DNA of 64,000 bases from an uncultured Thermoplasmata archaeon (GTDB lineage Archaea > Thermoplasmatota > Thermoplasmata > WALJ01), in contig CAYYXK010000001.1 in assembly GCA_964475625.1 (NCBI GenBank), positions 30,935 through 94,934 of the forward strand, in the 5' to 3' direction. Below, piece after piece: positions 8,094 to 57,801 of the stretch; position 1 is the first letter of the stretch; every line of letters begins with the position of its first letter. A program made the position numbers and the translations under genes. The notes below the pieces were generated by a model. The model ran no database searches. It saw only the letters and a list, made by a program, of their open reading frames with translations, and was not told the origin of the DNA.

Positions 8094-8121
8094 GCTTTTA
8101 TGCACTGTGTGATTGCCCATC

Positions 8122-8556: not shown

Positions 8557-8572
8557 AAGCCTTAATAATGGA

Positions 8573-10657: not shown

Positions 10658-16137
<5,480 letters not shown>

Positions 16138-16145
<8 letters not shown>

Positions 16146-23292: not shown

Positions 23293-24132
23293 ATGCTTAA
23301 ACGGCCGATTGCGGTGCTCATGTTCGTTATTCTTATGGTGCCTGTGTTCTCTACGGCAGCCGATGTATTCGCTCCAACCGTAGAGGACTATGTCTGCAAT
23401 CCCCGTAACACCAACTTCCTTTTCCTGAACTTCTCCGGAGATACGATATATCCCGGAAATTCCGGCAATCTGGTATTTCGCCTCAATAATCCGTATAACA
23501 GAAGCATGGAAGATATCAATCTTACTGCCGAGATATACGCGTGGGCGGACCTTGAGGACTACAGGGATATCGACGCCAAGTTCCCAAACCCTCCGACCAT
23601 GAAACAGGGTACGGGGCGCATATATTCGGACCATGTCGAGGAACTTCTGCCTTCCATGAACATAACATATGACCTGAAAATAAACACGAAGGAAAACACG
23701 CTTGAAGGGACATATTATGTGCGGTTTACCCTTGAATTCGACTATTCCAATTCCAGCAAGAATTCCGCCACACACTTCATCATGCGCTCCATGTCATACT
23801 ACACGAAAGAACAATGGGATTATGCGACAAGGGTGCCGAGCGAATCGGACCTTCCTTATTATCGGCATGGTGTGAACATGACATATCTGAGCCGTTTCTA
23901 CCCTGTTGATGCCATAATTCCCTTCACAAGCTTCTCGGTGCACAGAGGAATACCAAAATGGCCTCTTTTCGTACTCGGTGGCGGAGCCGTGTTCTTCGCG
24001 GTGCTGGCATACATGTATTACATGAATGACAATTATGGAAAATACAAATGGCTAGATGAGAAGACCAAGCAGATGTCTGGCAAATACCAGAAGTTTAGGC
24101 GTAGACTTTACGAGAGGGCGCGCCAGAAGTGA
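23293..24132 (+). CDS. Hypothetical secreted/membrane glycoprotein (N-terminal signal peptide, C-terminal TM)
   Basis: Its signal peptide is 'MLKRPIAVLMFVILMVPVFSTAA'. It has many N-x-S/T sequons and a C-terminal 'LFVLGGGAVFFAVLAYMYY' helix. Its 3' end overlaps the convergent gene by 81 bp. Confidence 0.4.
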   Translation: MLKRPIAVLMFVILMVPVFSTAADVFAPTVEDYVCNPRNTNFLFLNFSGDTIYPGNSGNLVFRLNNPYNRSMEDINLTAEIYAWADLEDYRDIDAKFPNPPTMKQGTGRIYSDHVEELLPSMNITYDLKINTKENTLEGTYYVRFTLEFDYSNSSKNSATHFIMRSMSYYTKEQWDYATRVPSESDLPYYRHGVNMTYLSRFYPVDAIIPFTSFSVHRGIPKWPLFVLGGGAVFFAVLAYMYYMNDNYGKYKWLDEKTKQMSGKYQKFRRRLYERARQK

Positions 24133-25186: not shown

Positions 25187-25927
25187 TCACTTCGGAGTTA
25201 TTCCTCTCTCGGTGACGGAATATTCCATTATTCCGAGCCGTTCGGGGTGGTTCCTTACCTTCTGAATTATGAGGAAATGACTGAAATGCTTTTCTTTTCT
25301 CTGCTTTTCGAGCTCCACTATGGCATCCACTATCTCTTCCACACCGCTCTCCGTCTTAGTTTCATGGACCCCTTTCAGCATGGTTACCAGCACGACCCCC
25401 CTCTGATGCTGACTGTGTGCCTTGATAGTCCGTAGGGCGGACATGACATGCTGCGGCTCATAATATTCGAGAAAGAAATCCAGCGAGTCTACTATCACCC
25501 TGAAAGGCGGCTCCAGTTTGGATATCTCATATGTTACCTTTGTAAGGAAATTGACACCCTTTGATATGTCCTGTTTCCTGAGCCTCTTGAGATCCCTTAT
25601 TGTAACTCCTTCCTGTCTGTAACGACTTATCTCCACCTCTCTGGCAAGAACCTTCTCATAGTATTCTCCCCCTATGTTCACTATGTTTATGTTCGGATCC
25701 CATCCGAAGTGCTCCATGGTCTTCTTGACATCCTCGTCCCTTTCATTTGTCGTGAAATAGATCACGTTTTCCTTTCCAACGCCTGCCGATGCGAACTGCT
25801 TGGCGAAGAGCTCTGTGCCGGAACCCGGAGACCCGTGTACCAGTATCATGAATCCTTCGGGAACTCCCCCCAGGACCTCGTCCAGTTCGGGTATGCCTAT
25901 GCTTCTGTGTCCCGGCTCCATTACCAT
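25187..25927 (-). CDS. KaiC/RecA-superfamily ATPase-like protein (FlaH/ArlH-like) with Walker A lacking the lysine (GSPGSGTE)
   Basis: 'GIPELDEVLGGVPEGFMILVHGSPGSGTELFAKQF' is the KaiC-like N-terminus. The gene is translationally coupled to the upstream gene. Confidence 0.55.
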   Translation of the reverse strand: MVMEPGHRSIGIPELDEVLGGVPEGFMILVHGSPGSGTELFAKQFASAGVGKENVIYFTTNERDEDVKKTMEHFGWDPNINIVNIGGEYYEKVLAREVEISRYRQEGVTIRDLKRLRKQDISKGVNFLTKVTYEISKLEPPFRVIVDSLDFFLEYYEPQHVMSALRTIKAHSQHQRGVVLVTMLKGVHETKTESGVEEIVDAIVELEKQRKEKHFSHFLIIQKVRNHPERLGIMEYSVTERGITPK

Positions 25928-26496
25928 TCCTCCGTTATCTCTATTCTCTCGTCACAGACCATGGTGAGAGCACGGTTTATCTCATCCGAGCTCTGCTCCT
26001 TTATCGAAAGGACTATCGTATACGCATTCTTAGAGCGCAGGCTGTTGAAAAGTATGTGCATGAACTCGGAAAGTATGCTTATGTTGTTGTGTATGGCCAG
26101 AGAGTTTATCGAATCTATGAAGATGAGTTTTTCCTTTTTGGGGTCCAGTTTTCTCAACAGGAATTCGATCTTAAGCATTATGTTCTCAAGCATCGTTGCA
26201 CTCTCCACATACAAAACATGGCCGTTGGTGGCCTTCTTGTCCATAAGTACGCTGGAACCGCAGTCAACGAAATATATGTGGTCTCTCTTCATCTCCAGAA
26301 GGTCCATAACATTGATTATGGATGCCGCCGGAAGTGTGGAGTTTATGTATATGACATCCAGCTTCTTCTCTATGGATATCTTTTCGGTAAGGGCCCTTAT
26401 CACATCGAAATAGCTGTCGGAATTTACTTCCAGCCCTATGACCGATGCTTCGCTTATGCCTTTCAGTTTCTCATACGCCTGATCCATGACGCCCAT
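25921..26496 (-). CDS. Degenerate KaiC/RecA-like domain protein (no Walker A; Walker-B-like 'LIFIDSINSL')
   Basis: Its secondary-structure-like pattern resembles a RecA fold. Its start and stop overlap the flanking KaiC-like genes. Confidence 0.4.
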   Translation of the reverse strand: MGVMDQAYEKLKGISEASVIGLEVNSDSYFDVIRALTEKISIEKKLDVIYINSTLPAASIINVMDLLEMKRDHIYFVDCGSSVLMDKKATNGHVLYVESATMLENIMLKIEFLLRKLDPKKEKLIFIDSINSLAIHNNISILSEFMHILFNSLRSKNAYTIVLSIKEQSSDEINRALTMVCDERIEITEEW

Positions 26497-27266
26497 CAGT
26501 CCCCACCTCCTTTGAGCATGGGAACCAGAAGAACCCCTATCGGCGTCAGGTCCAGCACATATTTTGCCCTCGAATGGCTGGTGCCTCTCATTTTCACGAC
26601 CTGAAGTGTTCTCAGAAGGTCGCCTCTTCTCTCATAATTTCCCATGAGTATTATCCCGTCGGCTATGGCCTCCTCAACCCCGTATGTGGAGTATCTGGCA
26701 TCCGAAGGAAGTATCTCGGAAACAAGCAGGCTGGTGCAGCCCAACTGAGACAGTTCTTTTCCGAGTTTCAGTATGAAATCCCGTATCTTTTCCTCTGTTT
26801 TTAACTGGAAACAGACCGATGTCACCGAATCTATCACAAGTCTCTTTATGTTGAGTTCCTTGACTATGTCCCCCAACGCATTGACGAGAAGGTCTATCTC
26901 CTCAAAGGAGAACTCCGATTTCTGAAGCCCGAGCCGCTCGTATATGGCGGGCATGTCTATGAATATCAATTTTCCCTTTTTAAGAAGGTCCTCGCTGAAG
27001 AATTCATATGGTATCAGGTTTGCCAGAAGTTTCTCGGATGCCTCTGTGACCGAAACGAAAAGGCAGTTCTCTCCATACAAGGCTCCGTGCACAAGGAACT
27101 CGAGACTTGTGGTGGTCTTCCCAGTACCACAGCTACCTGTTATGAGCACCGTGTTTCCCCTCGGTATCCCTCCGTTCAAAATTGCATCCAGCGTATCCAC
27201 ACCAGTCTTACAGCGGGGTCTGTCAGAAGATTTCACGGTGTTTTTCTTATGGGTGTTGAGAGGCAT
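26496..27266 (-). CDS. KaiC-like RecA-superfamily ATPase with intact Walker A/B
   Basis: 'GVDTLDAILNGGIPRGNTVLITGSCGTGKTTTSLEF' is present, with Walker B 'LVIDSVTS'. Confidence 0.7.
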   Translation of the reverse strand: MPLNTHKKNTVKSSDRPRCKTGVDTLDAILNGGIPRGNTVLITGSCGTGKTTTSLEFLVHGALYGENCLFVSVTEASEKLLANLIPYEFFSEDLLKKGKLIFIDMPAIYERLGLQKSEFSFEEIDLLVNALGDIVKELNIKRLVIDSVTSVCFQLKTEEKIRDFILKLGKELSQLGCTSLLVSEILPSDARYSTYGVEEAIADGIILMGNYERRGDLLRTLQVVKMRGTSHSRAKYVLDLTPIGVLLVPMLKGGGD

Positions 27267-27468: not shown

Positions 27469-27510
27469 CTTTCTATTCCTACAAGATGTTGTGCCCGACG
27501 AGGGGCTGAA

Positions 27511-27526
27511 ACACAAGATATATGTG
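27511..27526 (+). promoter_or_regulatory. Putative NrdR box (acacaagatatatgtg), an imperfect palindrome resembling the bacterial NrdR-box consensus acaCwAtATaTwGtgt
   Basis: It is located between the TATA box and the nrdR start, about 20 bp upstream of the ATG. Confidence 0.4.
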
Positions 27527-27544
27527 ATAGATAGAGGTAGAGAA

Positions 27545-28009
27545 ATGAAGTGCCCGTACTGTGGAAACGTAGACACAAAGGTGGTGGATTCCCGCTACTC
27601 CGAAGACATGGGAGCCATACGCAGAAGAAGAGAATGTCTCAACTGCGGAAAACGATTTACGACCTATGAAAGGGTGGAAATCGCGCCGATAATAGTGATA
27701 AAAAAGAACGGTGTGAAAGAGGAATTCGACCCCGAGAAGATACGTAAAGGGATGATGCGGGCCTGCGAGAAGAGACCGATAAGCCCGGAGGACATAGACA
27801 TAGCGGTGCAGGAGATAGAACGGGAAATACGGCAGATGGAGTCCATAGAGATCCCGAGTATGGAGATAGGGGAACTAGTAATGAGAAAGCTCCGCTCCAT
27901 GGACAAGGTCGCATACATACGCTTTGCCTCGGTCTATCGCGAATTCGAGGATGTCGAAACATTCCAGAAGGAAATAAACATGATATTGGAGAAATACGGA
28001 GGAAGATAG
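27545..28009 (+). CDS. nrdR: Transcriptional repressor NrdR (zinc ribbon + ATP-cone)
   Basis: 'MKCPYCG...DTKVVDSR...RRRRECLNCGKRFTTYERVE' is the NrdR signature. Confidence 0.85.
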   Translation: MKCPYCGNVDTKVVDSRYSEDMGAIRRRRECLNCGKRFTTYERVEIAPIIVIKKNGVKEEFDPEKIRKGMMRACEKRPISPEDIDIAVQEIEREIRQMESIEIPSMEIGELVMRKLRSMDKVAYIRFASVYREFEDVETFQKEINMILEKYGGR

Positions 28010-28010
28010 A

Positions 28011-30470
28011 ATGGTACTGGAAAAAGTAAGAAAAAGAGACGGAAGAATAGTGGAATTCGATCAGGAAAAGATAACTGAGGCCATCCAGAAGGCGTTCCTT
28101 GCAAAAGGATACATGAGTGAGACCGCAAAACTGCTGTCAAAGAGCCTTTCGGACAAGGTAGTCGGAAAACTTGAGAAGAGATTCTCGGATGAAATCCCGG
28201 AGATAGAAGATATACAGGACCTCGTTGAGGCGACTCTCATAGAGGAGAATTTCAGCAAGGTGGCCAAAGCGTACATACTTTACAGAAGGCAGAGGGAGGA
28301 TGTAAGAAAGCTCAAAGAGACCATGCTTGAAGTGGACAAGGTCATGGACGGATATCTCGACCAGATAGACTGGAGGGTGAATGAGAACAGCAATTCCGGC
28401 TATTCCCTTTCGGGCTTGCTGATGCACGCGGCAGGCTCCGTTGTTGCGAACTATGTTCTCACGAAGGTCTATCCGAAAGAGATTGCGGATGCGCACAGAG
28501 AAGGGGATTTCCATATCCACGACCTTTCAATGGGAATTGCGGGATACTGTGCCGGTTGGAGCATAAAACAGCTTCTGACGGAGGGATTCAACGGAGTGGA
28601 GGGCAAGGTGGCATCATCTCCCCCGAAACACCTTGAAACAGCTCTCGGACAGATGGTCAATTTCCTCGGAACTCTGCAGAATGAGTGGGCCGGTGCGATG
28701 GCATTCTCATCCTTCGATACATATCTCGCACCCTTCGTGCGCTCGGACAACCTTGACTATAAGCAGGTGAAACAGGCGGTACAGCAGTTCGTTTTCAGTC
28801 TGAATGTCGCCAGCAGATGGGGCGGCCAGACACCTTTCACAAACATAACTCTGGACTGGGTCGTTCCCGAGGATATGAAAGATGAACCGGCCATAGTCGG
28901 AGGAAAACTTGCCGATTTCACATACGGAGAGCTTCAGAAGGAAATGGACCTCATCAACAAAGCGTTCATAGAAGTGATGATAGAAGGAGATGCGAACGGA
29001 AGGCCCTTTACCTTCCCGATACCCACATACAATATAACCGATGACTTCGACTGGGACAGCGAAAACGCCACTCTTCTTTTCGATATGACCGCCAAGTACG
29101 GACTCCCGTATTTCCAGAACTTCATAAACAGTGACCTCAACCCGGGAGATGTAAGGTCCATGTGCTGCAGACTGCAGCTTAACCTTAAGGAATTGAAGGC
29201 GAAGACAGGCGGTCTTTTCGGCTCCGGAGAATGCACGGGTTCGATAGGTGTCGTAACATTGAACATGCCCCGCATAGGCTATCTTTCAAAGACGAAAGAG
29301 GAGTTCTTCGAAAGGGTATCCAAACTCATGGACCTTGCGCAGGAATCCCTCGAGATAAAGAGAAAGATCGTCAACATGAACATGGAGAACGGACTTCTTC
29401 CGTACACGAAGAGATATCTCGGAACCCTGGACAACCATTTCTCCACGATAGGGCTCGTCGGAATGAACGAAGCCTCACTGAATTTCATGGGAAAGGACAT
29501 AGGTACTGAAGACGGAAAGAAGTTCGCGATAGAGGTCCTCAACTTCATGAGGGATAAGCTTACCCAGTATCAGGAGGAGACCGGACACATATACAACCTT
29601 GAAGCGACTCCTGCCGAAGGCACCTCATACAGACTTGCAAGGATTGATAAACAGAAATATCCCGATATCATAACTTCAGGCGAGGATGAGCCGTATTACA
29701 CCAATTCCACACAGCTCCCAGTCGGATATACGGACGACATATTTGAGGCGCTCGACCTTCAGGACGACCTTCAGAAACTGTACACCGGTGGTACTGTCCT
29801 TCACGGTTTCCTAGGAGAGGAAATAGACAATGCGGAATCCTGCAAACTTCTCGTAAGAAGGATCGCCGAGAACTACAGACTCCCGTACTACACGATAACA
29901 CCTACATTCTCCATATGCAAACAGCATGGATATATATCCGGGGAGCACTTCACATGTCCGAAATGCGGTGAGCCGACAGAGGTATATTCAAGGGTCGTGG
30001 GATACTTCAGACCGGTCCAGAACTGGAACAAGGGAAAGAAGGAGGAGTTCAAGGAGAGGCTGGAGTTCAACATAAAGAAGAGAGGTATACGGCCTGCGCT
30101 CCGCCCTTCCGTCAATAAGGAATCGGACAGCCCCGCTTCGAATATGATGGCTTCTTCATCGCCTGCCGAAGGAGGAGAGGTTGCCGCAGAGATAACTCCG
30201 ATAAGCTCGGGTATCCTTGATGACAAGAAGGTCTCGAAATATGTATTCTTCTGGGCCAACCACTGCCCTCACTGCCCTGCCGTAAAGATGTATCTGAACG
30301 ATAAGGCGGATGGTATTCCCGGAGAGCACATAAACGTCGATACAGAAGAAGGCCGCGAAATGGCTCTGAATTACGATATAATAGGCACACCCACGGTCAT
30401 ACTTTTCGATGAAGGCGGGAACGAACTGGCCCGGGTGAACAATATCGGAGGATTGCGTAAATGGTTGTAA
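28011..30470 (+). CDS. nrdD: Anaerobic ribonucleoside-triphosphate reductase (class III) with N-terminal ATP-cone and C-terminal thioredoxin-like (CPHC) extension
   Basis: It has an ATP-cone, the glycyl-radical motif 'SRVVGYFRPV', and a Cys cluster 'CPKCGE'. The extra C-terminal ~110 aa contain 'WANHCPHCP'. GGAGGA is the SD at 27997-28002. Confidence 0.85.
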   Translation: MVLEKVRKRDGRIVEFDQEKITEAIQKAFLAKGYMSETAKLLSKSLSDKVVGKLEKRFSDEIPEIEDIQDLVEATLIEENFSKVAKAYILYRRQREDVRKLKETMLEVDKVMDGYLDQIDWRVNENSNSGYSLSGLLMHAAGSVVANYVLTKVYPKEIADAHREGDFHIHDLSMGIAGYCAGWSIKQLLTEGFNGVEGKVASSPPKHLETALGQMVNFLGTLQNEWAGAMAFSSFDTYLAPFVRSDNLDYKQVKQAVQQFVFSLNVASRWGGQTPFTNITLDWVVPEDMKDEPAIVGGKLADFTYGELQKEMDLINKAFIEVMIEGDANGRPFTFPIPTYNITDDFDWDSENATLLFDMTAKYGLPYFQNFINSDLNPGDVRSMCCRLQLNLKELKAKTGGLFGSGECTGSIGVVTLNMPRIGYLSKTKEEFFERVSKLMDLAQESLEIKRKIVNMNMENGLLPYTKRYLGTLDNHFSTIGLVGMNEASLNFMGKDIGTEDGKKFAIEVLNFMRDKLTQYQEETGHIYNLEATPAEGTSYRLARIDKQKYPDIITSGEDEPYYTNSTQLPVGYTDDIFEALDLQDDLQKLYTGGTVLHGFLGEEIDNAESCKLLVRRIAENYRLPYYTITPTFSICKQHGYISGEHFTCPKCGEPTEVYSRVVGYFRPVQNWNKGKKEEFKERLEFNIKKRGIRPALRPSVNKESDSPASNMMASSSPAEGGEVAAEITPISSGILDDKKVSKYVFFWANHCPHCPAVKMYLNDKADGIPGEHINVDTEEGREMALNYDIIGTPTVILFDEGGNELARVNNIGGLRKWL

Positions 30471-32491: not shown

Positions 32492-32532
32492 AGGAATATA
32501 GGATATAGCCCACTGCTGAGGTGGCACATCCG

Positions 32533-34212
32533 ATGGCAGAAACAGAAAAAGTTTCGGAAAAGGAATCAAAAAAGTTCGATCTCTTCTCACTGATGGAGCC
32601 GTTTATCCGTAAGACTCCCAAAAAGGTGATGATACCTGCTAAAGAGGCAGAGGACCGGACGGACCAGGGTTCTATATACACCAACATCCCCCCCATAACG
32701 GACCCCAATGTAGATGTGCTTGAGATAAAGCCCATTGTAAAGGATTTTTCATATTCTCGGATATTGTATGACAATGCTAACAGTGAATATATATATCAGG
32801 CAATAGAGCCGCAGCTCAGTGAAAAGGAACAGGGATATCTCATTCTTCTGAAAGACTCCATGAGCAAGACCATGGACTATGAGTGGGAAAAACTGGCCGA
32901 CCATGATAAAAAAGAATACCTTATCGAGAGCATAGAAAGCTTCATCAAAAGCCGGAACCTTGACCTTCCCGAAGTAAGCAAAGAGAAGATAATGTACTAT
33001 CTTGTCCGTGATTTCATAGGTTACGGTCCGATCGATATTCTCATGAATGACGAGGACATAGAGGACATCTCCTGTGACGGTACCAACATACCTCTCTTCA
33101 TATTCCATAAGAAATACGAGTCGATAAAAACAGATGTGAAGTTTCTGGAGGACGAGGTACTTGATTCGTTCATAATCTCTCTGGGACAGCGCTGCGGAAA
33201 GAACATATCTGTGGCAAACCCGATTCTGGACGGTACCAGCAAGGAGGGGCACAGGGTTCAGGCAACATATTCCCATGAGGTTACCACCCGCGGTTCCTCG
33301 TTCACCATAAGGCGTTTCAAAGAAAAGCCCTTCACACCGGTTGAGCTGATAAAGTTCAATACCGCATCCGCTGAAATGATAGCGTATCTGTGGATGATGG
33401 TCGAGAACGGTAAATCGCTAATAGTCTGCGGTGGAACTGCGTGCGGTAAAACCGCGACGCTCAATGCGACAAGCCTCTTCATCCCTCCGGGTGCAAAAAT
33501 CGTTACAATGGAGGACACAAGGGAGATAAACCTGCCACATGAGAACTGGATTCCCAGTACCACGAGGAGTGGTGTCGGCGAAAGAGGCGCTGACGGTAAG
33601 GCCGCCGGTGAGATAGACATGTACGACCTCGTCAGGGCCGCTCTGAGGCAAAGGCCAAACTATATCATAGTGGGAGAGGTGAGAGGTAAGGAGACATACA
33701 CCATGTTCCAGGCCATGGCAACGGGACATACGACATATACGACCATGCACGCCGACTCCGTCAAGTCCATGGTGCACAGGCTTGAGAATCCGCCGATCAA
33801 TACGCCCAGAATCCTTCTTACCGCACTCAACCTTGTCATAATCCAGACCTTTGCGAGGCTGAAGGACCTTCAGGTCAGGAGGATAAAGGAGATTGTGGAG
33901 ATAGTCGGCTTCGAAGCGGAAACGAATGAACTTGTTACGAATCAGGTCTATGCATGGAATCAGATAACGGATACTTTTCTATATAAGGGACACAGTTTCA
34001 TACTCGATGCTATCATGGAAATGAAAAATATGACCCACGAAGACATGCAGAACGAGATGAATCGCAGGGTCGAGGTCATAGAGTATATGGTTAAAAAAAA
34101 CATAGTGGACTACCGGGAAATAGCCAAGATAATCACCGGCTATTACAAAGACCCGGAGGAGACCATAGAGCGCATAAGAGATGAACTTGAGGTGGAATCC
34201 GATGAGTCCTGA
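32533..34212 (+). CDS. FlaI/TadA-like type IV filament assembly ATPase (paralog 1)
   Basis: Walker A 'CGGTACGKTATLNA' is present, along with 'GEVRGKE', 'MATGH', and an archaeal FlaI-type N-terminal domain. Confidence 0.8.
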   Translation: MAETEKVSEKESKKFDLFSLMEPFIRKTPKKVMIPAKEAEDRTDQGSIYTNIPPITDPNVDVLEIKPIVKDFSYSRILYDNANSEYIYQAIEPQLSEKEQGYLILLKDSMSKTMDYEWEKLADHDKKEYLIESIESFIKSRNLDLPEVSKEKIMYYLVRDFIGYGPIDILMNDEDIEDISCDGTNIPLFIFHKKYESIKTDVKFLEDEVLDSFIISLGQRCGKNISVANPILDGTSKEGHRVQATYSHEVTTRGSSFTIRRFKEKPFTPVELIKFNTASAEMIAYLWMMVENGKSLIVCGGTACGKTATLNATSLFIPPGAKIVTMEDTREINLPHENWIPSTTRSGVGERGADGKAAGEIDMYDLVRAALRQRPNYIIVGEVRGKETYTMFQAMATGHTTYTTMHADSVKSMVHRLENPPINTPRILLTALNLVIIQTFARLKDLQVRRIKEIVEIVGFEAETNELVTNQVYAWNQITDTFLYKGHSFILDAIMEMKNMTHEDMQNEMNRRVEVIEYMVKKNIVDYREIAKIITGYYKDPEETIERIRDELEVESDES

Positions 34213-35218
34213 AGTTAGCGATGCATTCAAAGGCCTGGATACGAAAAAATGGAGCCTGTTCCATACGAAAAGAGTCAAGGCCGAAGATGTCATAGAGGGT
34301 TATGGTCCGCACATCGTTTATCTCCCGAAAGAGGCCGTCCCCAGTCAAATAAGACTTACACCCTTTCAACAGACCGCACTTCGTATCATGGGGAAAAAGG
34401 CGGAAAAAGAGATCGAAAAATATCCGGATTTGGATGACTGGCTTCTGAAATCCCGTATGCGTATGAGGGGCGAAGAGTATCTGGCATATGCTCTTCTGAC
34501 GACATATATCATGTGGGCTATTGCGGGCGTTCTTGCAGTTGTATTCATCGCACTCTATTCCGTGATCGGATTCCTTTCCATATTGATCGCACTTATAATG
34601 GTCATGATCGCATTTGTGATTAAACCGTTGATACTTTCGATGCCCAAATCGAAGGCCAAGGGCAGAGGAAGAGATATAGACAAGAAACTCGCGTCCGCCA
34701 TGTCCTTCGTGGCATCACTCTCATCCGCAGATGTGAATGTGGATGTCATATTCAAAGAGCTTGCAAAACAGCCTATATATGGGGAGATACAGAAGGAGGC
34801 CGAATGGATAACCAGAGACACCGAGTTGCTAGGTGTTGACATACTCACGGCCATAAAAGAAGGTGCCCTGCGCAGCCCTTCGGTCAAGTGGCAGGACTTC
34901 CTTCAGGGTGTGGTCACAACCTCCACATCGGGGGGACAGCTCAAGCCTTACTTCATAGTCAAATTACAGGAGTTCGAAAAGGACAGCCAGCTTGACAACA
35001 AAAGAAGGGCCGAAACTCTGGGAATGATGGCGGAATCGTATGTCACCGTCGTGGTCGCATTCCCGCTGTTCCTGATAGTCATCATAGCTATAATGGCGAT
35101 AACGAACGGACAGGCGGAATCAAGCATACCCATGCTCTATGCGGTAGATGCGCTGATGATACCTGGCTCACAGGGTATTTTCCTTTACATCATGTGGGGC
35201 CTTACACAGGAGGCATAA
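34202..35218 (+). CDS. TadB/TadC-like platform protein, N-terminal half (single T2SSF-type domain, multiple TM)
   Basis: It has polytopic TM segments around a cytoplasmic helical domain. It overlaps the ATPase stop by 11 nt. Confidence 0.6.
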   Translation: MSPEVSDAFKGLDTKKWSLFHTKRVKAEDVIEGYGPHIVYLPKEAVPSQIRLTPFQQTALRIMGKKAEKEIEKYPDLDDWLLKSRMRMRGEEYLAYALLTTYIMWAIAGVLAVVFIALYSVIGFLSILIALIMVMIAFVIKPLILSMPKSKAKGRGRDIDKKLASAMSFVASLSSADVNVDVIFKELAKQPIYGEIQKEAEWITRDTELLGVDILTAIKEGALRSPSVKWQDFLQGVVTTSTSGGQLKPYFIVKLQEFEKDSQLDNKRRAETLGMMAESYVTVVVAFPLFLIVIIAIMAITNGQAESSIPMLYAVDALMIPGSQGIFLYIMWGLTQEA

Positions 35219-35219
35219 G

Positions 35220-36137
35220 ATGTCCGATGACAGCTTTGATCTGGAAAAAGCGAAAGCCACCTCAAAAAAGATACTCTACGCATCCGTAGGAATGGCGGTA
35301 ATTTTCATATTCGTGGGTATCCTTGAGATGAACGGTTCGATGAAGACCATGTTTGATGCCTTCGACTATTTCATATTCGCCATACTTGCGATGACGGGGC
35401 CCTATGGCATATACAAAGGAAAGATAGACAAAACCATAGATGAGATAGAGAAAAGGCTTCCCGACTTCCTAAGAGATGTGGCGGAAGCGGGAAGATTCGG
35501 AATGACACTCGCGGATGCCATAGTTGTCGCCGCATCCGGGAGATATGGTAAACTGACCCCGGAAATAAAGAAAATGGCCGCACAGATACAGTGGGGAGTT
35601 CCGGCCACTCAGGCCCTCAAATTATTTGCCGAGAGGATAGATACTCCTCTCGTGAGGAGGGTCACCACCATAGTCATAAAATCTTCGGATGCCGGAGGTA
35701 ATGTCGCTGATGTTCTTTCTATGGTCTCTCACAGTGTAAAAGATGTCCACCATGCAAAGGAAGAATTAAGCATAGAGATGGTCACTTATCTGGCTGTTAT
35801 CTATATCTCATTCATGGTTTTCATAGCCACGATACTCATCCTTGACCTGACATTCCTTCCCCAGATGGAACAGGCCGGAGAAGCCCTGTCCCGTTCCGCG
35901 GATATAAGTAGTGGCGCAGGTTCCGTGACACTGATACAATCCGAATACATACCGGAGATCAAGTTCATATTCACACTCACCATCATAATACACGGAGTGG
36001 GAGATGGATTGGTGGCGGGAATACTATCTAAAGGCAAGTTCTCGGAAGGCATGAAGCATGCATTTATCATGGTCCTTATAGGTTTCATCACTTTAAGGGT
36101 CATGTTCGGCGGATTGAACCTTGCAGGAGGCGGATAA
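35220..36137 (+). CDS. TadB/TadC-like platform protein, C-terminal half (second T2SSF-type domain)
   Basis: Its architecture is similar to the preceding ORF. It starts 1 nt after the preceding stop. Confidence 0.6.
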   Translation: MSDDSFDLEKAKATSKKILYASVGMAVIFIFVGILEMNGSMKTMFDAFDYFIFAILAMTGPYGIYKGKIDKTIDEIEKRLPDFLRDVAEAGRFGMTLADAIVVAASGRYGKLTPEIKKMAAQIQWGVPATQALKLFAERIDTPLVRRVTTIVIKSSDAGGNVADVLSMVSHSVKDVHHAKEELSIEMVTYLAVIYISFMVFIATILILDLTFLPQMEQAGEALSRSADISSGAGSVTLIQSEYIPEIKFIFTLTIIIHGVGDGLVAGILSKGKFSEGMKHAFIMVLIGFITLRVMFGGLNLAGGG

Positions 36138-37817
36138 ATGGCGGGAAGCCAAGTGGTAGAAAAAGTGGAGAAAAAGGAGGATACCGCTCCCCCACCGGGA
36201 ATCAAGGACAAAGTGATATCGTTCGCAATAGGAAAGACGCCGGTCAAGATAATGCTTCCGAAGGAAGAGACATCCAGAGACCTCTCAAAAGACATCACAC
36301 TGATACCCAAGATAGTGGATATGCATGTCAATGAAATCGAGATAGAACCCGTTGAAGAGCCGTATTCATATGTAAGGATAAAGTACGATACGATATCGAA
36401 CGAATATATGTATGAAGTAATAGAGCCCCAGTTGAACGATGATGAGGATGAGGTTTTGATAGCGGTCAGGAAGGCACTTGTCGATAGGTTTAACCTCGTC
36501 GGCAAGGAGGAAATGAACAATAGAGAGGAGATTCTCAGGGAACTCACGGAGAAGGCCATAGACGAAACCGGTATAGAACTTAGCGAGATATCAAGGAAAC
36601 GGATATTCTATTACACGAGAAGAGACTTCCTCGGCTTCGGAGCCATACATGTCGCTATGATAGAGAAACAAGTGGAAGACATATCTTGTGATGGCGTCAA
36701 CATACCTATATATATCTATCACAGAAAATATGGCTCCATAAAGTCGAACATAAAGTTTGAAACGGCGGAGGAACTCGATAGTTTCGTGGTATGGCTGGCA
36801 CAGAGGTCGGGAAAGCACATCTCCGTGGCAAGTCCCATGCTTGATGCCACCATGCCGGATGGCTCCAGGTTAAATGCCACACTCGGCACCCATGTGACCA
36901 AGAGGGGTTCGTCGTTCACAATAAGGCGATTCAAAGAGGACCCGTTTACCCCGATAGACCTGATAAAGTTCAAGACGATGAGTTCCGAAATGATGGCATA
37001 TCTCTGGATTGCCATAGAGAACGGCCAGTCCATGCTGATATGTGGAGGTACCGCATCGGGTAAAACCACCACACTCAATGCTGTCCTGCTGTTCATCCCG
37101 CCTCAGATGAAGATAGTCAGTATCGAGGATACTCGAGAACTCAATTTACCCCATGAGAACTGGGTGCCTACCCTTACCAGAAGCGGTTTCGGTGCCAAAA
37201 ACCCCATAACCGGAAAGGCTGCGGGGGAGATAGATATGTTCGACCTTCTGGCGGCGGCACTGAGGCAGAGGCCGCAGTACATGATGGTGGGAGAGGTCAG
37301 GGGTTCGGAAGCGTATGTTGTCTTCCAGGCCATGGCAACGGGAAAGAGCGCATACACGACATTCCACGCGGAGGATGTTCAGGCAATGGTGCACAGGCTT
37401 GAAAACGACCCGATAAACCTGCCGAGGACCCTGATCGCCGCTCTGGATATCGTGCTTCTGCAGGGACAGGTGAAGGTCGGGAAGAACATGACAAGAAGGG
37501 TCAAAGGTCTTATCGAGATAGTCGGTACGGACCCGCAGACCGATGAACTCATCACGAACAATGCATATATGTGGAACCCTGCAGACGATACCTTCAATTT
37601 CAGCGGCCACAGCTATGTCTATGAAAAGGTCGCATTGACAAAGAACTGGTCGGCCCGGGAGATGGAAAGAGAGGTCAAAAGAAGAAAGGACATACTTGAT
37701 TACATGAAGAAGATAGGGGTGAGCAACTACAAAGAGGTCGCCAGAATAGTCTCCGCATACTACAAGGACAAGAAGAAGGTCATGGAAGAGGTCAGAAGGG
37801 TTCTCGAAGAGGAATGA
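36138..37817 (+). CDS. FlaI/TadA-like type IV filament assembly ATPase (paralog 2)
   Basis: Walker A 'CGGTASGKTTTLNA' is present, along with 'GEVRGSE' and 'MATGK'. Its start abuts the preceding stop (TAAATG). Confidence 0.8.
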   Translation: MAGSQVVEKVEKKEDTAPPPGIKDKVISFAIGKTPVKIMLPKEETSRDLSKDITLIPKIVDMHVNEIEIEPVEEPYSYVRIKYDTISNEYMYEVIEPQLNDDEDEVLIAVRKALVDRFNLVGKEEMNNREEILRELTEKAIDETGIELSEISRKRIFYYTRRDFLGFGAIHVAMIEKQVEDISCDGVNIPIYIYHRKYGSIKSNIKFETAEELDSFVVWLAQRSGKHISVASPMLDATMPDGSRLNATLGTHVTKRGSSFTIRRFKEDPFTPIDLIKFKTMSSEMMAYLWIAIENGQSMLICGGTASGKTTTLNAVLLFIPPQMKIVSIEDTRELNLPHENWVPTLTRSGFGAKNPITGKAAGEIDMFDLLAAALRQRPQYMMVGEVRGSEAYVVFQAMATGKSAYTTFHAEDVQAMVHRLENDPINLPRTLIAALDIVLLQGQVKVGKNMTRRVKGLIEIVGTDPQTDELITNNAYMWNPADDTFNFSGHSYVYEKVALTKNWSAREMEREVKRRKDILDYMKKIGVSNYKEVARIVSAYYKDKKKVMEEVRRVLEEE

Positions 37818-41337: not shown

Positions 41338-41459
<122 letters not shown>

Positions 41460-41529
41460 TTTTCTCTTCAAACAAAAAGCATAAGAGTAAAGGTTTTAAT
41501 ATCGTCAGTTATAGGGGAGGAACGATAAC

Positions 41530-43416
41530 ATGAAGAGAAGGTTGGTTCTTGTAACAGCGGCCCTGATTTTCGCGGCCATGCAGTTCTCTATGCTGGGAGT
41601 CATGATGGGTGACGCATATCCTCCCGTGACCGGTGGAGATGTAGAGTGTGATACGACCCTGCAGATGATACCTATGACCCACACCATAGGCGGAGGTACG
41701 ATACACTGGCATATAACAGGCGACAATGCAAGGGAACTGAGAATGCTCATACTGGACCGCTTGGACAATGCGACTATAAACGACATCGCTCCGAATGATA
41801 CTGGCCAAGGTAGGAGAATCGGAGAAATAGATGAGTCCGAAATACGGGCCTATGTTGCAGCAGGAGATCATTCTTTCCTACAGAACTACATTCAGGGAAT
41901 TCGAAAAATGTGGATTCGTGTTGATAATGATACTAGAACATTTGAAGAGAATCCCTCTGGAGAGAACTATGATACGGTTATGTTTCAGGGTGTAGAGATA
42001 ACCCGTGCATCTCTTTCCAACAATAATATATATCAAGATACGGATGGTCTTATTGGACAGACGGCCGATTCCAACGCAGACATAGATATCTTCATGACCA
42101 TAAGTATGAAAGATACTGTTCGCATTACTGATATAGACCTTTCCAACCCCACCATACTTAAAGCGCCCTTTGAATGCCTTACAATGTTCGATGAGAACGG
42201 GGATGTCGTTGATTCCGTGGAATATCGTGGAGACGGGGGCATGACCCACTGGACTATTAGCATCGGCTTTGATAGCTTCTATAATCCTTCTGTAAAAACC
42301 GGCACTCTGTATCTCATAAGAACCCCTGCGGGAGAAGTGTACAGATACAGCACGGATGTCCAAGACGGCGGTGTTATGGAAGAAGGAATGCAGCACAGTG
42401 ATTTTAATCCCATTGAAAACCCCCAGATACTTTTCATAATAATGATAGTCTTCGGCTATCTGGCTGTTGCGCTCCCCACACATTTTTATCTGAAATACAG
42501 GAGCAGATATCCCAAAAGATATCGCGTAGAGGCAAAAAGGATCAAATGGCTGCACTGGCTCGGAAGAATTTTCCTTCTTTTGATGCTCTTGCTCTATTTC
42601 TGGCCCATGATCGGGACATTCTATTTCTCAGGTATCATGTTCATAGGTATGAGCATCGGATTGGTTGCTCTCTCCGCAGTGCTCAGTAAAGTGACATATG
42701 AAAGGGCGGAGGCGGCCATACCCCCCGAATATTTCGAAGAGAAAAAGGCCATCGGGAAGGCGCAACCTGCAAAAAAGAGAAAGAAAACCCCTACGCCTCC
42801 TGTTGCGGCATCATATGAACCGGATAAGGACAAGATACACTGCATAAGGTGTGGTGCATTGATAACCATAAAGGAAGGAGAGAACCTTCTGAAAGTGAAA
42901 TGCCCCGTATGCGGAGCTGTACAAAAAAGAGTTGAGCGCGGATACAACCACCTCATACTGGACAGCAGCCTGAAAAACACATATAACATGTTGGCTGATT
43001 TTCTGAGGGACGGGGACGTGGCTCTGTGCCTCAGTACCAGTATGCCGGGCAAACTGAAAAGGACCTATCACCTTTCGGGAAAACTGAAATGTATATGGCT
43101 CAGCGCGGCGGGAGGAAAAGACACCCTTGATCCGTCGAACATAGACAAGATATCCGAGACCATAGATCGTTTCGCGGAAAAATACCCGGCATCAATCATA
43201 CTGGTGGACGGGCTTGAGTACCTTGTCGTGGAACACGGCTTCGATGCGGTATCGAGATTCCTCAAAAAGGTGATGGACACGGCATCCATGAGGGATATAA
43301 CACTGATGGTTCCAATTAACCCTGCTTCTTTAAGCAGCGATGAACTTACCATATTGAAGGGTGAGTTCGACAGAGTGGAGGCCCTGGAGGATATGGATGA
43401 AAGGGAATTCTTCTGA
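41530..43416 (+). CDS. Membrane receptor-like protein. It has a signal peptide and ~300-aa extracellular domain, TM helices, a cytoplasmic zinc ribbon, and a C-terminal degenerate KaiC/RecA-like (DUF835-like) domain
   Basis: The signal peptide is 'MKRRLVLVTAALIFAAMQF'. Hydrophobic helices lie at ~aa 295-380. It has 'CIRCG...CPVCG' and a C-terminal 'IILVDGLEYLVVEHGFD...ITLMVPINP' domain. GGGGAGG is the SD before the ATG. Confidence 0.5.
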   Translation: MKRRLVLVTAALIFAAMQFSMLGVMMGDAYPPVTGGDVECDTTLQMIPMTHTIGGGTIHWHITGDNARELRMLILDRLDNATINDIAPNDTGQGRRIGEIDESEIRAYVAAGDHSFLQNYIQGIRKMWIRVDNDTRTFEENPSGENYDTVMFQGVEITRASLSNNNIYQDTDGLIGQTADSNADIDIFMTISMKDTVRITDIDLSNPTILKAPFECLTMFDENGDVVDSVEYRGDGGMTHWTISIGFDSFYNPSVKTGTLYLIRTPAGEVYRYSTDVQDGGVMEEGMQHSDFNPIENPQILFIIMIVFGYLAVALPTHFYLKYRSRYPKRYRVEAKRIKWLHWLGRIFLLLMLLLYFWPMIGTFYFSGIMFIGMSIGLVALSAVLSKVTYERAEAAIPPEYFEEKKAIGKAQPAKKRKKTPTPPVAASYEPDKDKIHCIRCGALITIKEGENLLKVKCPVCGAVQKRVERGYNHLILDSSLKNTYNMLADFLRDGDVALCLSTSMPGKLKRTYHLSGKLKCIWLSAAGGKDTLDPSNIDKISETIDRFAEKYPASIILVDGLEYLVVEHGFDAVSRFLKKVMDTASMRDITLMVPINPASLSSDELTILKGEFDRVEALEDMDEREFF

Positions 43417-43417
43417 G

Positions 43418-43813
43418 ATGCGGACGGCCGTAGCCGCACTTTTTCTTGGAGAAGGTAGAGAGGCCCTCACCGAGGACGAGGCCCTCCTTTCCATTTCCGT
43501 AAAAAGAAGATGGTTCTCTCCCGAGCTTGCAAAGATATTCATAGAGAATGCGCTCTCTTCGGGCCTCATCAAACGTGATGGAAAATACATCAAACCCTCT
43601 TTCGAATACGGCGAACTGGAGATTCCTTATGGATATTATCCCGATGATAGCGTCCTCGCGACAGGCGAAGAAACCGAAGATATACCCGTTGATGCGCTCT
43701 CCATGGACTATCCGTTTACGGATGAGGTCAAGTCTCTGATATATCTTATGAGAAAGGGGGAGGATGTGCGGAACAAACTGGATGCCGTAGAAAAGAAGCT
43801 CATGGAAAACTGA
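43418..43813 (+). CDS. Hypothetical conserved archaeal protein, coupled to the upstream receptor-like gene
   Basis: The ATG lies 1 nt after the preceding stop, and the ORF-track start at 43361 is an in-frame extension into the upstream gene. There is no recognisable catalytic motif. Confidence 0.4.
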   Translation: MRTAVAALFLGEGREALTEDEALLSISVKRRWFSPELAKIFIENALSSGLIKRDGKYIKPSFEYGELEIPYGYYPDDSVLATGEETEDIPVDALSMDYPFTDEVKSLIYLMRKGEDVRNKLDAVEKKLMEN

Positions 43814-45003: not shown

Positions 45004-45309
45004 TTATCCGCTTGCGCTCACGAAGGGCAACAGGAAATGTCTCATCGCTCTGAGCCTTTCATCGCTCTTTCCGGTTATGGTTACGGCGGCATCACTGAGG
45101 GTGAGCTTCAGCTTAAGAGGTTTTTCATCAACCACCTCTATATTTTTTATATCCTTTATGGGTATTTCATAAAAAGTGTCTCCTATACCCACAATTATGT
45201 CTGATACTGATAGATACAACTCTCCCTTCTTCCACTTGAGGCTTATGTTGACATTGTCGTCAAGGAGATTGACCGAAAAGGCCACCGTTTCAAGCTTCTG
45301 TATCTCCAT
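45004..45309 (-). CDS. Hypothetical small protein downstream of ftsZ
   Basis: This is a 101-aa ORF with no recognisable motif. Confidence 0.3.
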   Translation of the reverse strand: MEIQKLETVAFSVNLLDDNVNISLKWKKGELYLSVSDIIVGIGDTFYEIPIKDIKNIEVVDEKPLKLKLTLSDAAVTITGKSDERLRAMRHFLLPFVSASG

Positions 45310-55983: not shown

Positions 55984-57012
55984 GTGAAATGCTTCAGGTG
56001 CGGAAAGAACGAAGCGGCCATAGACGGGCTTTGCGGGGATTGCTACATCGAAACGCATAAGCTTCTCGAATATCCGGAATACATCGATGTTCTGCGCTGT
56101 CTTCACTGCGGAGCCCTGTCCTTCGACGGAAAGAGATGGAGGGACACCGAAGATACTGTCCGGGAGCTCCGGGATATGGCTCTCACAACCATCAACATAT
56201 CTAAAGAAGCGAAGGTGGAAGAAGTCGAGGACACGGTCATGGAGCGCGACCCCTATATGTATGACTACCTAGGAAAAATCACCCTGTCCGTCGGTGATTT
56301 TCGAGCCGAGAGAGAATTCCACTCCGTAATACGTGTAAAGGGAGCGACGTGTCCAGCATGCAGCAGACTGCACGGCCACTACTTTGAGGCCATAATCCAG
56401 ATAAGGGCGGCCGGAAGAGAGATGACGGATGCGGAAAAGAAGATGGCACGAGATATCGTCATAAACCGGGTCTCTCAGGCTGAGAAAGGGAACAGAAATG
56501 TCTTTCTGACCGATGAGAAAGAGATGCACGGCGGACTGGACTTCTATATCAGCCACAGCGCAACTGCCAGAGGCACTGCGAAGGAACTGTCGGACTCCTT
56601 CGCCGGAAAAATCACCGAATCCAAGACCCTTACCGGAAGAAAGGAGGGCGAGGACTTCTACAGATTCACATTTCTCGTGCGGCTGCCCGAATACGGAAAG
56701 GGGGACTTCGTAAGGTATGGCGGCGGTTATTATATGGTGGAATCATCTTCCGGAAAGGGGTGGAAGCTGAAATCACTGGAAGGAAAACCGGATGTGCGGG
56801 TGCGTGGAAAGGACCTTAAAAGGATGAAACTTGCGGCCGGAAAGGATGATGTCGAGCATGCGATAGTCCTTTCTTCAACGGAGAACGAGGTTCAGGTCAT
56901 GGACCCGAAGACATATGAAACGAAAAACCTCATAATGAAGGGGAAAAAGGGTAAAAGCGCCAAAATAATACGGATAGAGAACGAGATATACGCATTACCC
57001 GATGATGAGTAG
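55984..57012 (+). CDS. NMD3-family protein (archaeal 60S export adaptor homolog)
   Basis: The N-terminus 'CFRCG...LCGDC...CLHCG' has the Nmd3 zinc fingers and OB-like C-terminus. The start is GTG. A TATA-like 'cctataaat' lies at ~55925-55933. Confidence 0.65.
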   Translation: MKCFRCGKNEAAIDGLCGDCYIETHKLLEYPEYIDVLRCLHCGALSFDGKRWRDTEDTVRELRDMALTTINISKEAKVEEVEDTVMERDPYMYDYLGKITLSVGDFRAEREFHSVIRVKGATCPACSRLHGHYFEAIIQIRAAGREMTDAEKKMARDIVINRVSQAEKGNRNVFLTDEKEMHGGLDFYISHSATARGTAKELSDSFAGKITESKTLTGRKEGEDFYRFTFLVRLPEYGKGDFVRYGGGYYMVESSSGKGWKLKSLEGKPDVRVRGKDLKRMKLAAGKDDVEHAIVLSSTENEVQVMDPKTYETKNLIMKGKKGKSAKIIRIENEIYALPDDE

Positions 57013-57801
57013 TTCTATGGAGTTCCCGCCTTCCATATGGGATGATATCACAGGTTCCCCTCCTTTTTTTTCTATTATGCCCTCAATTACGGCGAGGTCG
57101 TCCTCATTTCCGCCTTTCATCAGAAGTATCTTTCTTCCGGATGCCTTCAACCAAGGTGATGCATAGGCCTCGCGTACTGCTTTTTCAGCGCTCTCCATTC
57201 CTTTTCCTTCTCCGATCCCGACCCCCACCTTCCCTTTGAGTGCGCGCAAGATGTCATCCGTATCTTCCGGAACGAAGAACTCGGAGAACCACAGTACGGT
57301 CTCGCTGAACATGCGGGTAACCGCATTGAACGCCCCGCTCATCGTGGCATTGGGCGCTATCTTCAGTATGCCGTCGTTCTCGAGAACTATCGCCCACGGA
57401 GCGCTCTTGATGAGCCGGTTCATTCCCTTTTGCGCCTGAGTCCTTCTGGCCTCACCCTCAAGAGAGAATGGCAGGGATGCCATTGGAATCATCCTTTTTG
57501 AGAGTGAACTCAGCATCACGGGACCGACGGTACCGTAAAAACCTCCCAGTCCGGATACTGAAAAAACAAGGTCGTAGTGTTCGAGGACACGAAGAGCGCT
57601 TTTCTCGGTCTCAAGAAGGCTTCTCCGGACATCTGGGCTCGAACTTACGGAAGCTATCATCTCCTCTCTCGTGGAAAATATGTTCCTGTATGTCCTATCC
57701 TCTCTGTCGTTCATGAGATATGTCTCTATTCCTCTGCCTTTCAAAAGCCTTATCGCATTGGCACCTGCGCCACCACATCCAATCACCGCGGAACAGAGCA
57801 C
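56995..57801 (-). CDS. Divergent, short FtsZ/tubulin-like protein with degenerate signature (SGLGGFYGT)
   Basis: It begins 'VIGCGGAGANAI' (glycine-rich FtsZ N-terminus) but is only 268 aa, and its GGGTGTG motif is degraded. Confidence 0.45.
   Translation of the reverse strand: MLCSAVIGCGGAGANAIRLLKGRGIETYLMNDREDRTYRNIFSTREEMIASVSSSPDVRRSLLETEKSALRVLEHYDLVFSVSGLGGFYGTVGPVMLSSLSKRMIPMASLPFSLEGEARRTQAQKGMNRLIKSAPWAIVLENDGILKIAPNATMSGAFNAVTRMFSETVLWFSEFFVPEDTDDILRALKGKVGVGIGEGKGMESAEKAVREAYASPWLKASGRKILLMKGGNEDDLAVIEGIIEKKGGEPVISSHMEGGNSIELLIIG

Follow-up and report, generated by a model that had tools for sequence, protein, structure and literature searches.

In a 64,000-nucleotide stretch of DNA from an uncultured Thermoplasmata archaeon (contig CAYYXK010000001.1; the whole stretch is hereafter called the window), we analysed a gene predicted to encode a 628-amino-acid membrane receptor ending in an inactivated KaiC-like domain. 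The architecture of this protein, i.e. an ectodomain, three transmembrane (TM) helices, a zinc ribbon and an ATPase-dead DUF835 domain, leaves little room for doubt. The overall picture, in which the dead KaiC domain would act as the docking and transmitter module between a receptor and a KaiC-type hub, is the one that we favour, with modest confidence. The open reading frame (ORF) lies on the forward strand at 41530-43416, starts with ATG and comprises 628 codons. The elements of this gene and of the gene that follows it were assigned as follows:

41530..43416 (+): membrane-protein gene encoding, in order, a signal peptide, an ectodomain, three TM helices, a linker, a zinc ribbon and a DUF835 domain (ORF and orthologues)
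41530..41610 (+): predicted signal peptide or signal anchor, residues 1-27, with KRR and a hydrophobic stretch of ~22 amino acids (Kyte-Doolittle peak of 2.09 at residues 4-27)
41611..42420 (+): predicted ectodomain, residues 28-297, with a beta-sandwich core at ~37-245 carrying helical inserts
42421..42693 (+): three predicted TM helices (residues ~298-320, 340-358 and 362-388) and a strongly basic cytoplasmic loop (321-339), from hydropathy, the AlphaFold2 (AF2) model and charge
42694..42828 (+): juxtamembrane motif IPPEYFEE, then a disordered Lys/Pro-rich linker, residues 389-433, from the predicted local distance difference test (pLDDT) of the model, composition and motif conservation
42829..42933 (+): predicted zinc ribbon, residues 434-468, C438-x2-C441-x16-C458-x2-C461 (invariant Cys and model strands)
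42934..43413 (+): DUF835 domain, predicted to be an inactivated KaiC-like (RecA-fold) domain, residues 469-628 (Pfam, Foldseek, hhalign and PDB profile search)
43418..43813 (+): standalone DUF2240 (AROD-type) gene of 131 amino acids, translationally coupled (Pfam PF09999 and conserved position)

Nine full-length orthologues, sharing 53-100% identity with the 628-amino-acid protein, were identified. Because of these orthologues and of the relatives found at 36 species-level loci (see below), the ORF at 41530-43416 is, as judged by comparison, a real and conserved gene.

The C-terminal region of the protein matched the Pfam profile PF05763 (DUF835) with 89 bits, for a cut-off of 33.1, residues 483-613 covering positions 7-136 of the 136 positions of the profile. 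This domain has been named iKaiC, for inactivated KaiC-like ATPase domain, and was described in REC-DUF835 and REC-PAS-DUF835 response regulators of Methanomicrobia and Thermoplasmata (Galperin et al. 2018, PMC5847659, citing Makarova et al. 2017, mBio 8:e01959-17); a membrane-protein paper of 2015 does not mention DUF835. Its fold was approached in three ways. A Foldseek search of the PDB with the modelled domain (pLDDT 73-86) returned FlaH/ArlH (4yds) first, with an E-value of 8.6e-5, followed by dozens of KaiC chains, PH0284 (2dr3), Rho and RAD51 paralogues, with 140-168 alignment columns; the top matches (FlaH, KaiC and PH0284) had a probability of 1.00 and E-values from 1e-4 to 1e-3. A profile of 25 diverse DUF835 domains, searched against the PDB sequences, also ranked FlaH 4yds first (E 5.8e-4) and matched the FlaH of M. 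jannaschii (4wia, E 0.11). Such a profile was required, as a phmmer search of the PDB sequences with the C-terminal region itself gave nothing meaningful. Finally, hhalign aligned 148 representative DUF835 domains with seven KaiC-like ATPases, drawn from the window and related loci, at a P of 3e-4.

In the hhalign alignment, beta1, beta2, Walker B and beta5 are all in register. GYNHLIL corresponds to the strand ahead of the P-loop, ALCLSTSM to the strand of the catalytic Glu, IILVDGLEYL to Walker B and ITLMVP to the strand that follows it. A gap of four residues falls at the position of GxxGxGKT, and M505 stands at the position of the catalytic Glu. The Walker A pattern GxxxxGK[ST] was found neither in the 628-amino-acid protein nor in any of the representative DUF835 domains examined. 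The Walker-B-like strand (IILVD560GLEYL) is retained, with D560 present in 86% of the 148 representative domains, and P506, K508, W523, P535 and F548 are kept in 81-97% of the representatives. Since the structural, profile-versus-PDB and profile-profile comparisons agree, we regard the C-terminal domain as a bona fide DUF835 domain with a predicted RecA fold of the KaiC/ArlH type. Its P-loop appears to be deleted and its catalytic Glu lost, so that the domain should be unable to work as a KaiC-type ATPase. With no match to PF06745 (KaiC) in the Pfam scan at E-values up to 0.1, no Walker A and no catalytic Glu, the protein falls outside the KaiC ATPase family.

True KaiC genes are present in the window as part of a trio:

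25187-27266 (-): KaiC trio (Pfam and profile comparison)
26496-27266 (-): KaiC ATPase of the trio (PF06745, 195 bits)
25921-26496 (-): P-loop-less protein of 191 amino acids, called gene B, with weak similarity to KaiC and to the DUF835 profile
25187-25927 (-): second ATPase of the trio, KaiC/DUF7504/GvpD-like (Pfam)
24052-25182: FAD oxidoreductase resembling geranylgeranyl reductase (GGR), directly after the trio (homology)

The true KaiC genes of the window score 195 and 102 bits for PF06745. Some proteins bridge the two families: the 628-amino-acid protein matches DUF7504 weakly while a KaiC-like protein of the window exceeds the DUF7504 cut-off, and one protein from locus L024 matches both KaiC and DUF835 (L-numbers designate the loci of relatives). 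Against gene B, the DUF835 hidden Markov model and hhalign gave E-values of ~0.006-0.007 around the Walker-B strand, and pairwise BLAST with the DUF835 domain was not significant. An initial annotation of this DNA had proposed a degenerate KaiC-like output domain of ~200 amino acids, resembling gene B. The degenerate KaiC-like character agrees with the PF05763 match and with the fold matches to FlaH, KaiC and PH0284, i.e. the similarity to RecA folds on which that proposal depended was detected. The domain is shorter than proposed (~160 amino acids), and its likeness to gene B holds at the profile level but not in pairwise BLAST.

Ahead of the DUF835 domain, C438, C441, C458 and C461 are invariant in the nine orthologues, and the AF2 model places four short strands at 434-466, with low confidence (pLDDT ~50). 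Profile matches in this region stayed below threshold: Zn_ribbon_4 gave 15.1 bits for a cut-off of 30.3, HVO_2753 and PRK14890 were sub-threshold in the Pfam/NCBIfam scans, and a LysW-like match had an E-value of 0.3. A CxxC...CxxC arrangement occurs within the 90 residues upstream of 57 of the 148 representative DUF835 domains. We treat the CxxC-x16-CxxC region as a zinc ribbon, with predicted zinc binding. The linker that precedes it is modelled with a pLDDT below 50 over residues 397-433.

Topology was assessed from hydropathy, the positive-inside rule, the distribution of glycosylation sequons and the AF2 helices. Hydropathy delimits four hydrophobic segments (4-27, 298-320, 340-358 and 362-388), and helices are modelled at 298-324, 329-357 and 368-395. 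The N-terminal signal peptide or anchor is common to all orthologues; inspection of its sequence showed neither a class III (pilin-type) signal peptide nor a lipobox. Lys and Arg account for 9 of the 19 residues of loop 321-339 and for none in loop 358-367, and the tail past the last TM helix is Lys-rich. In all nine orthologues, 3-5 N-x-S/T sequons fall in the ectodomain versus 0-1 in the other ~330 residues, one of the ectodomain sequons being an invariant DNAT motif. The ectodomain is acidic and probably N-glycosylated. Its membrane-proximal part (~245-297) is poorly modelled, contains the conserved motif TPAGE and reaches the conserved ENPQILF (residues 296-302), which straddles the boundary between ectodomain and membrane. 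On the basis of the positive-inside rule and the sequon distribution, residues 28-297 are predicted to lie outside, and the zinc ribbon and DUF835 domain (past ~388) in the cytoplasm.

Most of the layout proposed in the initial annotation is recovered by these analyses. The signal peptide is matched by the hydrophobic segment 4-27 after KRR, kept in all orthologues; the 3-4 TM helices by the three found past the ectodomain by hydropathy and AF2; the Lys/Pro-rich linker by residues 389-433, disordered in the model; and the CxxC...CxxC ribbon by its four invariant cysteines, which the topology places on the cytoplasmic side. The region described as extracellular over ~300 amino acids is indeed predicted outside, with a length of ~270. 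The 131-amino-acid gene, for which the initial annotation gave no identity, does start 1 nucleotide (nt) past the stop of the receptor gene, as annotated (TGA at 43414-43416, next ATG at 43418).

We then looked at the distribution of this protein family. A scan with the motif patterns ENPQILF and IP[KP]EYFE, using one genome per species, retrieved relatives with 25-69% identity at the 36 species-level loci, all of them in metagenome-assembled genomes of Thermoplasmata/Thermoplasmatota; the hosts include Ca. Haladaptatiplasma, Ca. Halarchaeoplasma, Proteinoplasmatales SG8-5 and a Methanomassiliicoccales bin. As far as such a scan indicates, the receptor family is restricted to Thermoplasmata(-ota). 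When 1.84 billion cluster representatives were searched exhaustively with HMMER, 1990 matches were obtained; most of them span only residues ~465-620, i.e. any DUF835 protein, and among the 1990 DUF835 is joined to many different TM and sensor modules. The layout with signal peptide, ectodomain, 2-3 TM helices, 1-2 zinc ribbons and DUF835 was found in ~35 representatives. A word-indexed protein search with the C-terminal 199 amino acids alone gave one match and added no depth.

Distant relatives align over residues ~230-620, i.e. the membrane-proximal part of the ectodomain, the TM helices, the ribbon and the DUF835 domain; farther from the membrane, their ectodomains are longer and carry InhA-like MAM or PKD domains. 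The most conserved short motifs are juxtamembrane, TPAGE, ENPQILF and IP[KP]EYFE being all highly conserved. Conservation thus extends over the juxtamembrane and TM segments, the zinc ribbon and DUF835, while the membrane-distal ectodomain varies by lineage; a family of receptors or sensors would be expected to combine a changing outer module with a constant transmission core in this way. One variant departs from this layout: in L008, a gene at 8001-9047 (P0159, 329 amino acids) lacks the signal peptide and ectodomain and encodes only the TM helices, zinc ribbon and DUF835 domain. This short form could be a natural truncation or a deletion. The P0159 gene begins ~230-280 nt past the 5S rRNA gene of that locus.

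From this architecture, a mechanism can be proposed. The N-terminal signal sequence would send the ~270-amino-acid ectodomain outside, and the three TM helices, with their conserved juxtamembrane motifs, would return the chain to the cytoplasm, where the disordered Lys/Pro linker would hold out the four-Cys zinc ribbon and the DUF835 domain. The dead RecA-like domain would be a protein-protein docking or transmitter module, binding or co-oligomerising with active KaiC-like ATPases such as those encoded at 25187-27266, and possibly also binding standalone DUF835 proteins. In this way, a change perceived on the outside of the cell would modify how a KaiC-type hub in the cytoplasm assembles or how active it is. 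Lineages would swap the membrane-distal ectodomain and keep the transmission core.

The link to KaiC was examined through the gene neighbourhoods of distant relatives. In L018, L019, L021 and L022, a KaiC gene lies two genes from the receptor gene; in L024, a KaiC gene and a KaiC/DUF835-like gene are directly downstream of it; in L028, KaiC-like genes are 3.3 kb away. In total, six distant species have KaiC genes that begin ~0.1-3.3 kb past the receptor gene. This proximity, the one line of support for such a link, makes it plausible that the receptor feeds into KaiC-type ATPase networks. Loci L018-L023 have NadC, a GGR-like FAD oxidoreductase and a divergent TrmB-like regulator upstream, and a convergent UbiX-type flavoprotein, then the KaiC ATPase, downstream. 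Since the GGR-type gene next to the KaiC trio of the window (33-41% identity) is of the same type as the one flanking these distant receptor genes, an ancestral neighbourhood of receptor and KaiC genes may have been split in the lineage of the window. Loci L011-L017 and L020 present a divergent small winged-helix gene upstream, and UbiX and an ABC-2 transporter downstream. At most loci among L011-L023, the convergent UbiX-type gene (PF02441) directly adjoins the receptor gene on its 3' side, and a divergent small helix-turn-helix (HTH) gene, TrmB-like or CggR_N-like, lies upstream in most of them; neither the HTH nor the UbiX gene is found in the window.

Several observations weigh against this proposal. 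The nearest KaiC genes of the window are ~14 kb from the receptor gene, and a KaiC gene was found within 6 kb in only 6 of the ~24 distant loci whose flanks could be used. Since archaea encode several KaiC paralogues each, some adjacency is expected by chance. Among the loci compared, no operon partner is common to the entire family. The AF2 model of the domain is only moderately confident and the Foldseek E-values are only ~1e-4. The ectodomain showed no recognisable ligand-binding family, resembling only generic beta-sandwich, carbohydrate-binding module (CBM), cohesin and Ig-like folds, and one species (L008) encodes the version without ectodomain described above. Any interaction and any ligand of the receptor are hypothetical at this stage.

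The immediate surroundings of the gene in the window are archaeal in content (Hel308, isochorismatase, PCNA and FtsZ), and two elements precede the receptor gene directly:

41338-41459 (+): stand-alone 5S rRNA gene (Rfam RF00001, 99 bits), located between the receptor gene and PCNA
41495..41520 (+): putative archaeal promoter and ribosome-binding elements, i.e. a TATA-like TTTAATAT at 41495-41502 and GGAGG at 41516-41520 (sequence inspection)

The 5S rRNA gene has a T-rich end and lies 70 nt upstream of the receptor start codon, the putative promoter and ribosome-binding elements sitting 3' of this end. A scan for bacterial-type promoters and terminators, a type of scan inapplicable to archaea, gave no excess over shuffled sequence. 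In the close clade (L001-L008, at least 53% identity), FtsZ is always convergent and comes after the DUF2240 gene. Upstream of the receptor gene, 5S rRNA and PCNA are found in the window, L001 and L003, and enolase in L005 and L009; the 5S rRNA gene is also upstream in L008 and is absent from L004-L006 and L009. Farther upstream in the window, before Hel308, a T2SSE-T2SSF-T2SSF-T2SSE cluster with PilB3-like C-termini (32521-37817, +), resembling type IV pilus machinery, is also kept in L001 and L003. The PilB3-type T2SSE/T2SSF cluster, Hel308, PCNA and FtsZ were rejected as conserved partners of the receptor, as tblastn finds them adjacent only in close relatives. Just downstream of FtsZ and on the same strand, a 101-amino-acid ORF without Pfam match (45004-45309, -) is kept together with FtsZ in L001, L003 and L008 (67-75% identity) and may encode an uncharacterised FtsZ-associated protein.

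The gene that follows the receptor gene matched PF09999 (DUF2240) with 69.4 bits (cut-off 22.3), residues 2-89 covering positions 3-90 of the 144 positions of the profile. An alternative in-frame ATG at 43397 would give a protein of 138 amino acids overlapping the membrane-protein gene by 20 nt. The ENA and Logan gene callers retain this longer form, and NCBI and JGI records the 131-amino-acid form, at residue 2 of which the Pfam alignment begins. Orthologues share a KRRWFSP motif, an IPFGYYP motif and a C-terminal helix. The DUF2240 gene is directly 3' of the receptor gene in the window and at every locus with at least 53% identity that reaches the end of the gene (L001-L008 and the 100%-identical contigs L039/L040). 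A jackhmmer search of all fetched loci found DUF2240 only in L001-L008, with none within 8 kb in ~28 distant loci of the family, and a coupling across the whole family was therefore rejected. A protein search with the DUF2240 protein reached five close relatives only, a metagenome scan with the DUF2240 alignment gave 2 loci, and phmmer found no Rpa1 among the PDB sequences. Because the coupling is tight in the close clade, where it is kept despite upstream rearrangement, and absent elsewhere in the family, the DUF2240 gene would be a lineage-specific operon partner of uncertain relevance, with co-transcription predicted. Between DUF2240 and FtsZ, an additional standalone DUF835 gene (~151 amino acids) is present in L001 (10407-10862), L002 (2571-3026) and L008 (9584-10045); the window has only 18 nt at this place.

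DUF2240 corresponds to the N-terminal three-helix AROD domain of archaeal Rpa1, which binds OB folds, lowers the affinity of Rpa1 for single-stranded DNA (ssDNA) and exists as a standalone protein in some Thermoplasmata (PMC10122647). The receptor might then be a membrane tether between the envelope and replication or division, its zinc ribbon and DUF835 domain recruiting or sequestering the AROD protein, so that DNA replication, the handling of ssDNA or cytokinesis would be coupled to the state of the surface. This is rather unlikely. It is consistent with the properties of AROD, with the junction kept in the close clade (a start 1 nt past the receptor stop, or the 20-nt overlap), with the persistence of the receptor/DUF2240 pair and the convergent FtsZ while the upstream neighbour switches between PCNA/5S and enolase, and with the standalone DUF835 gene that follows DUF2240 in three loci. 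However, the lack of DUF2240 around the distant receptor genes points to a recent, clade-specific link, and searches seeded with DUF2240 did not reach beyond close relatives. Moreover, FtsZ is convergent and PCNA divergent, neither being inside the operon, and no gene for replication protein A (RPA) was seen beside the pair. More specifically, the operon of receptor, AROD and, in some loci, standalone DUF835, between PCNA/5S rRNA and FtsZ, could represent an unrecognised pathway whereby a sensor in the envelope governs how much of the RPA-modulating AROD is available; this version is quite improbable. If it were true, the surface or membrane state would be coupled to replication, repair or division in these Thermoplasmata.

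The HTH genes found upstream in distant relatives raise the possibility that the receptor instead controls a small divergent DNA-binding regulator, e.g. by sequestering it at the membrane in the manner of an anti-sigma factor or anti-repressor, and does not act via KaiC ATPases. The immediate divergent upstream gene is indeed TrmB-like in L018-L023 and L027, and a winged-helix protein of ~103 amino acids resembling CggR_N takes this position in L011-L017. Yet these are two different families, the upstream neighbours in the window and its clade are 5S rRNA/PCNA or enolase, with no HTH gene, and no homologue was detected in the window by blastp with the HTH genes of the distant loci (E <1e-8). 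Such a partnership is unlikely.

It is likewise improbable that the protein is a structural component of the envelope, with an adhesive or structural ectodomain and an inert DUF835 domain serving for oligomerisation or anchoring, and no signalling. Thermoplasmata do include wall-less lineages with unusual envelopes, and the generic folds of the ectodomain and the adhesion-type MAM and PKD domains of relatives would suit such a role. However, the best-conserved parts of the protein are the cytoplasmic zinc ribbon and DUF835 domain, DUF835 is also the output domain of response regulators, and the L008 variant retains the cytoplasmic part without ectodomain. Finally, a role as an ArlH-like accessory of the type IV pilus-like machine, with DUF835 docking on the PilB3-type ATPases whose genes lie 3.7-9 kb upstream, so that pilus assembly would be connected to a surface sensor, is very improbable: FlaH is the top match by structure and by profile, ArlH docks on the secretion ATPase ArlI and regulates it (PMC8978795), and the cluster is upstream in the window, L001 and L003, but Hel308, isochorismatase, PCNA and 5S rRNA separate it from the receptor gene, it is absent from the flanks of all other loci (L004-L038), and ArlH function requires ATP binding while the DUF835 domain has no P-loop.

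Other features of the window concern neither the receptor nor its neighbours. A 1169-amino-acid restriction-modification enzyme of the Eco57I/MmeI type (type IIG; PF07669 with 152 bits, N6_Mtase, TaqI_C) is encoded at 12636-16145 (+). It lies between a putative gyrB (10709-12646) and a putative gyrA (16138-18570), both labelled from N-terminal sequences, and overlaps both, so that a restriction-modification gene looks to be nested inside a gyrase operon. At 27491-30470 (+), an NrdR-like repressor (zinc ribbon and ATP-cone) is followed by the anaerobic ribonucleotide reductase NrdD, which has an N-terminal ATP-cone and a fused C-terminal thioredoxin/glutaredoxin-like domain. A short (268 amino acids), divergent protein of the tubulin/FtsZ family is encoded at 56995-57801 (-); its PF00091 match, barely over the cut-off at 33.5 bits, covers the C-terminal half of the GTPase domain only, and its gene overlaps the end of an NMD3-family gene on the opposite strand (55984-57012).

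A role of the receptor as an input to a KaiC-type hub would be of interest because classical signalling systems are scarce in archaea. That the main archaeal signalling hubs are formed by KaiC-like ATPases and inactivated relatives of these is a proposal that has hardly been put to the test. This family is a clean candidate for a surface-to-hub input, being a single polypeptide with a clear predicted topology and an ATPase-dead RecA-like domain, and the 64-kb window itself encodes candidate KaiC partners. Docking of the dead domain on KaiC-like hexamers, if it occurs, would show how a membrane signal enters such networks. At present, the receptor simply adds to the uncharacterised DUF835 proteins known from uncultured organisms, and its practical value is modest.

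We finally compared the receptor with known systems. Among solved structures, ArlH/FlaH (4yds, 4wia) is the best match, both structural and by profile. It likewise consists of one RecA-like domain, of comparable size, and acts by protein-protein contacts with a partner ATPase. ArlH nevertheless has an intact P-loop, binds ATP, autophosphorylates and is soluble, regulating ArlI via oligomerisation and autophosphorylation with a need for ATP binding (PMC8978795), whereas the 628-amino-acid protein has neither P-loop nor catalytic Glu and is tethered to the membrane. KaiC and KaiC-like proteins (PF06745; PH0284, 2dr3; the window genes 26496-27266 and 25187-25927) have the same RecA-like fold and strand order, and DUF835 aligns with them in register from the Walker-B strand through the helix and strand that come next; the receptor differs in having no Pfam KaiC match, a deleted Walker A, a replaced catalytic Glu, a single rather than double domain and a fusion to a receptor. 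The organisation also recalls bacterial transmembrane one-component or chemoreceptor-type sensors, with a variable outside sensor, conserved juxtamembrane and TM parts and a conserved cytoplasmic module, but here three TM helices instead of one follow the ectodomain and the transmitter is a dead RecA-like domain. Because Pfam/NCBIfam scans of the protein detected no HAMP, HisKA, HATPase, REC, MCP, GGDEF or HTH domain, it is predicted to be neither a two-component nor a classical one-component system. The DUF2240 protein matches the AROD of archaeal Rpa1 (69 bits), of which standalone Thermoplasmata forms were reported (PMC10122647). In contrast with the Rpa1 domain, it is not fused to an OB fold, has an extra conserved C-terminal part (IPFGYYP and a helix) and would form an operon with a DUF835 membrane protein. 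Among DUF835/iKaiC proteins (PF05763), the receptor is a clear member, without Walker A like all 148 representatives and with the domain in C-terminal position downstream of input modules. Both the DUF835 domain and a proposed signalling role of inactivated archaeal KaiC domains have been described before (PMC5847659), the examples in that paper being cytoplasmic REC-DUF835 and REC-PAS-DUF835 proteins. Specific to the present case, with its signal peptide, ectodomain, three TM helices and zinc ribbon, are the Thermoplasmata-restricted receptor architecture, an ectodomain not assigned to any recognisable ligand-binding family and a predicted operon with a standalone AROD.

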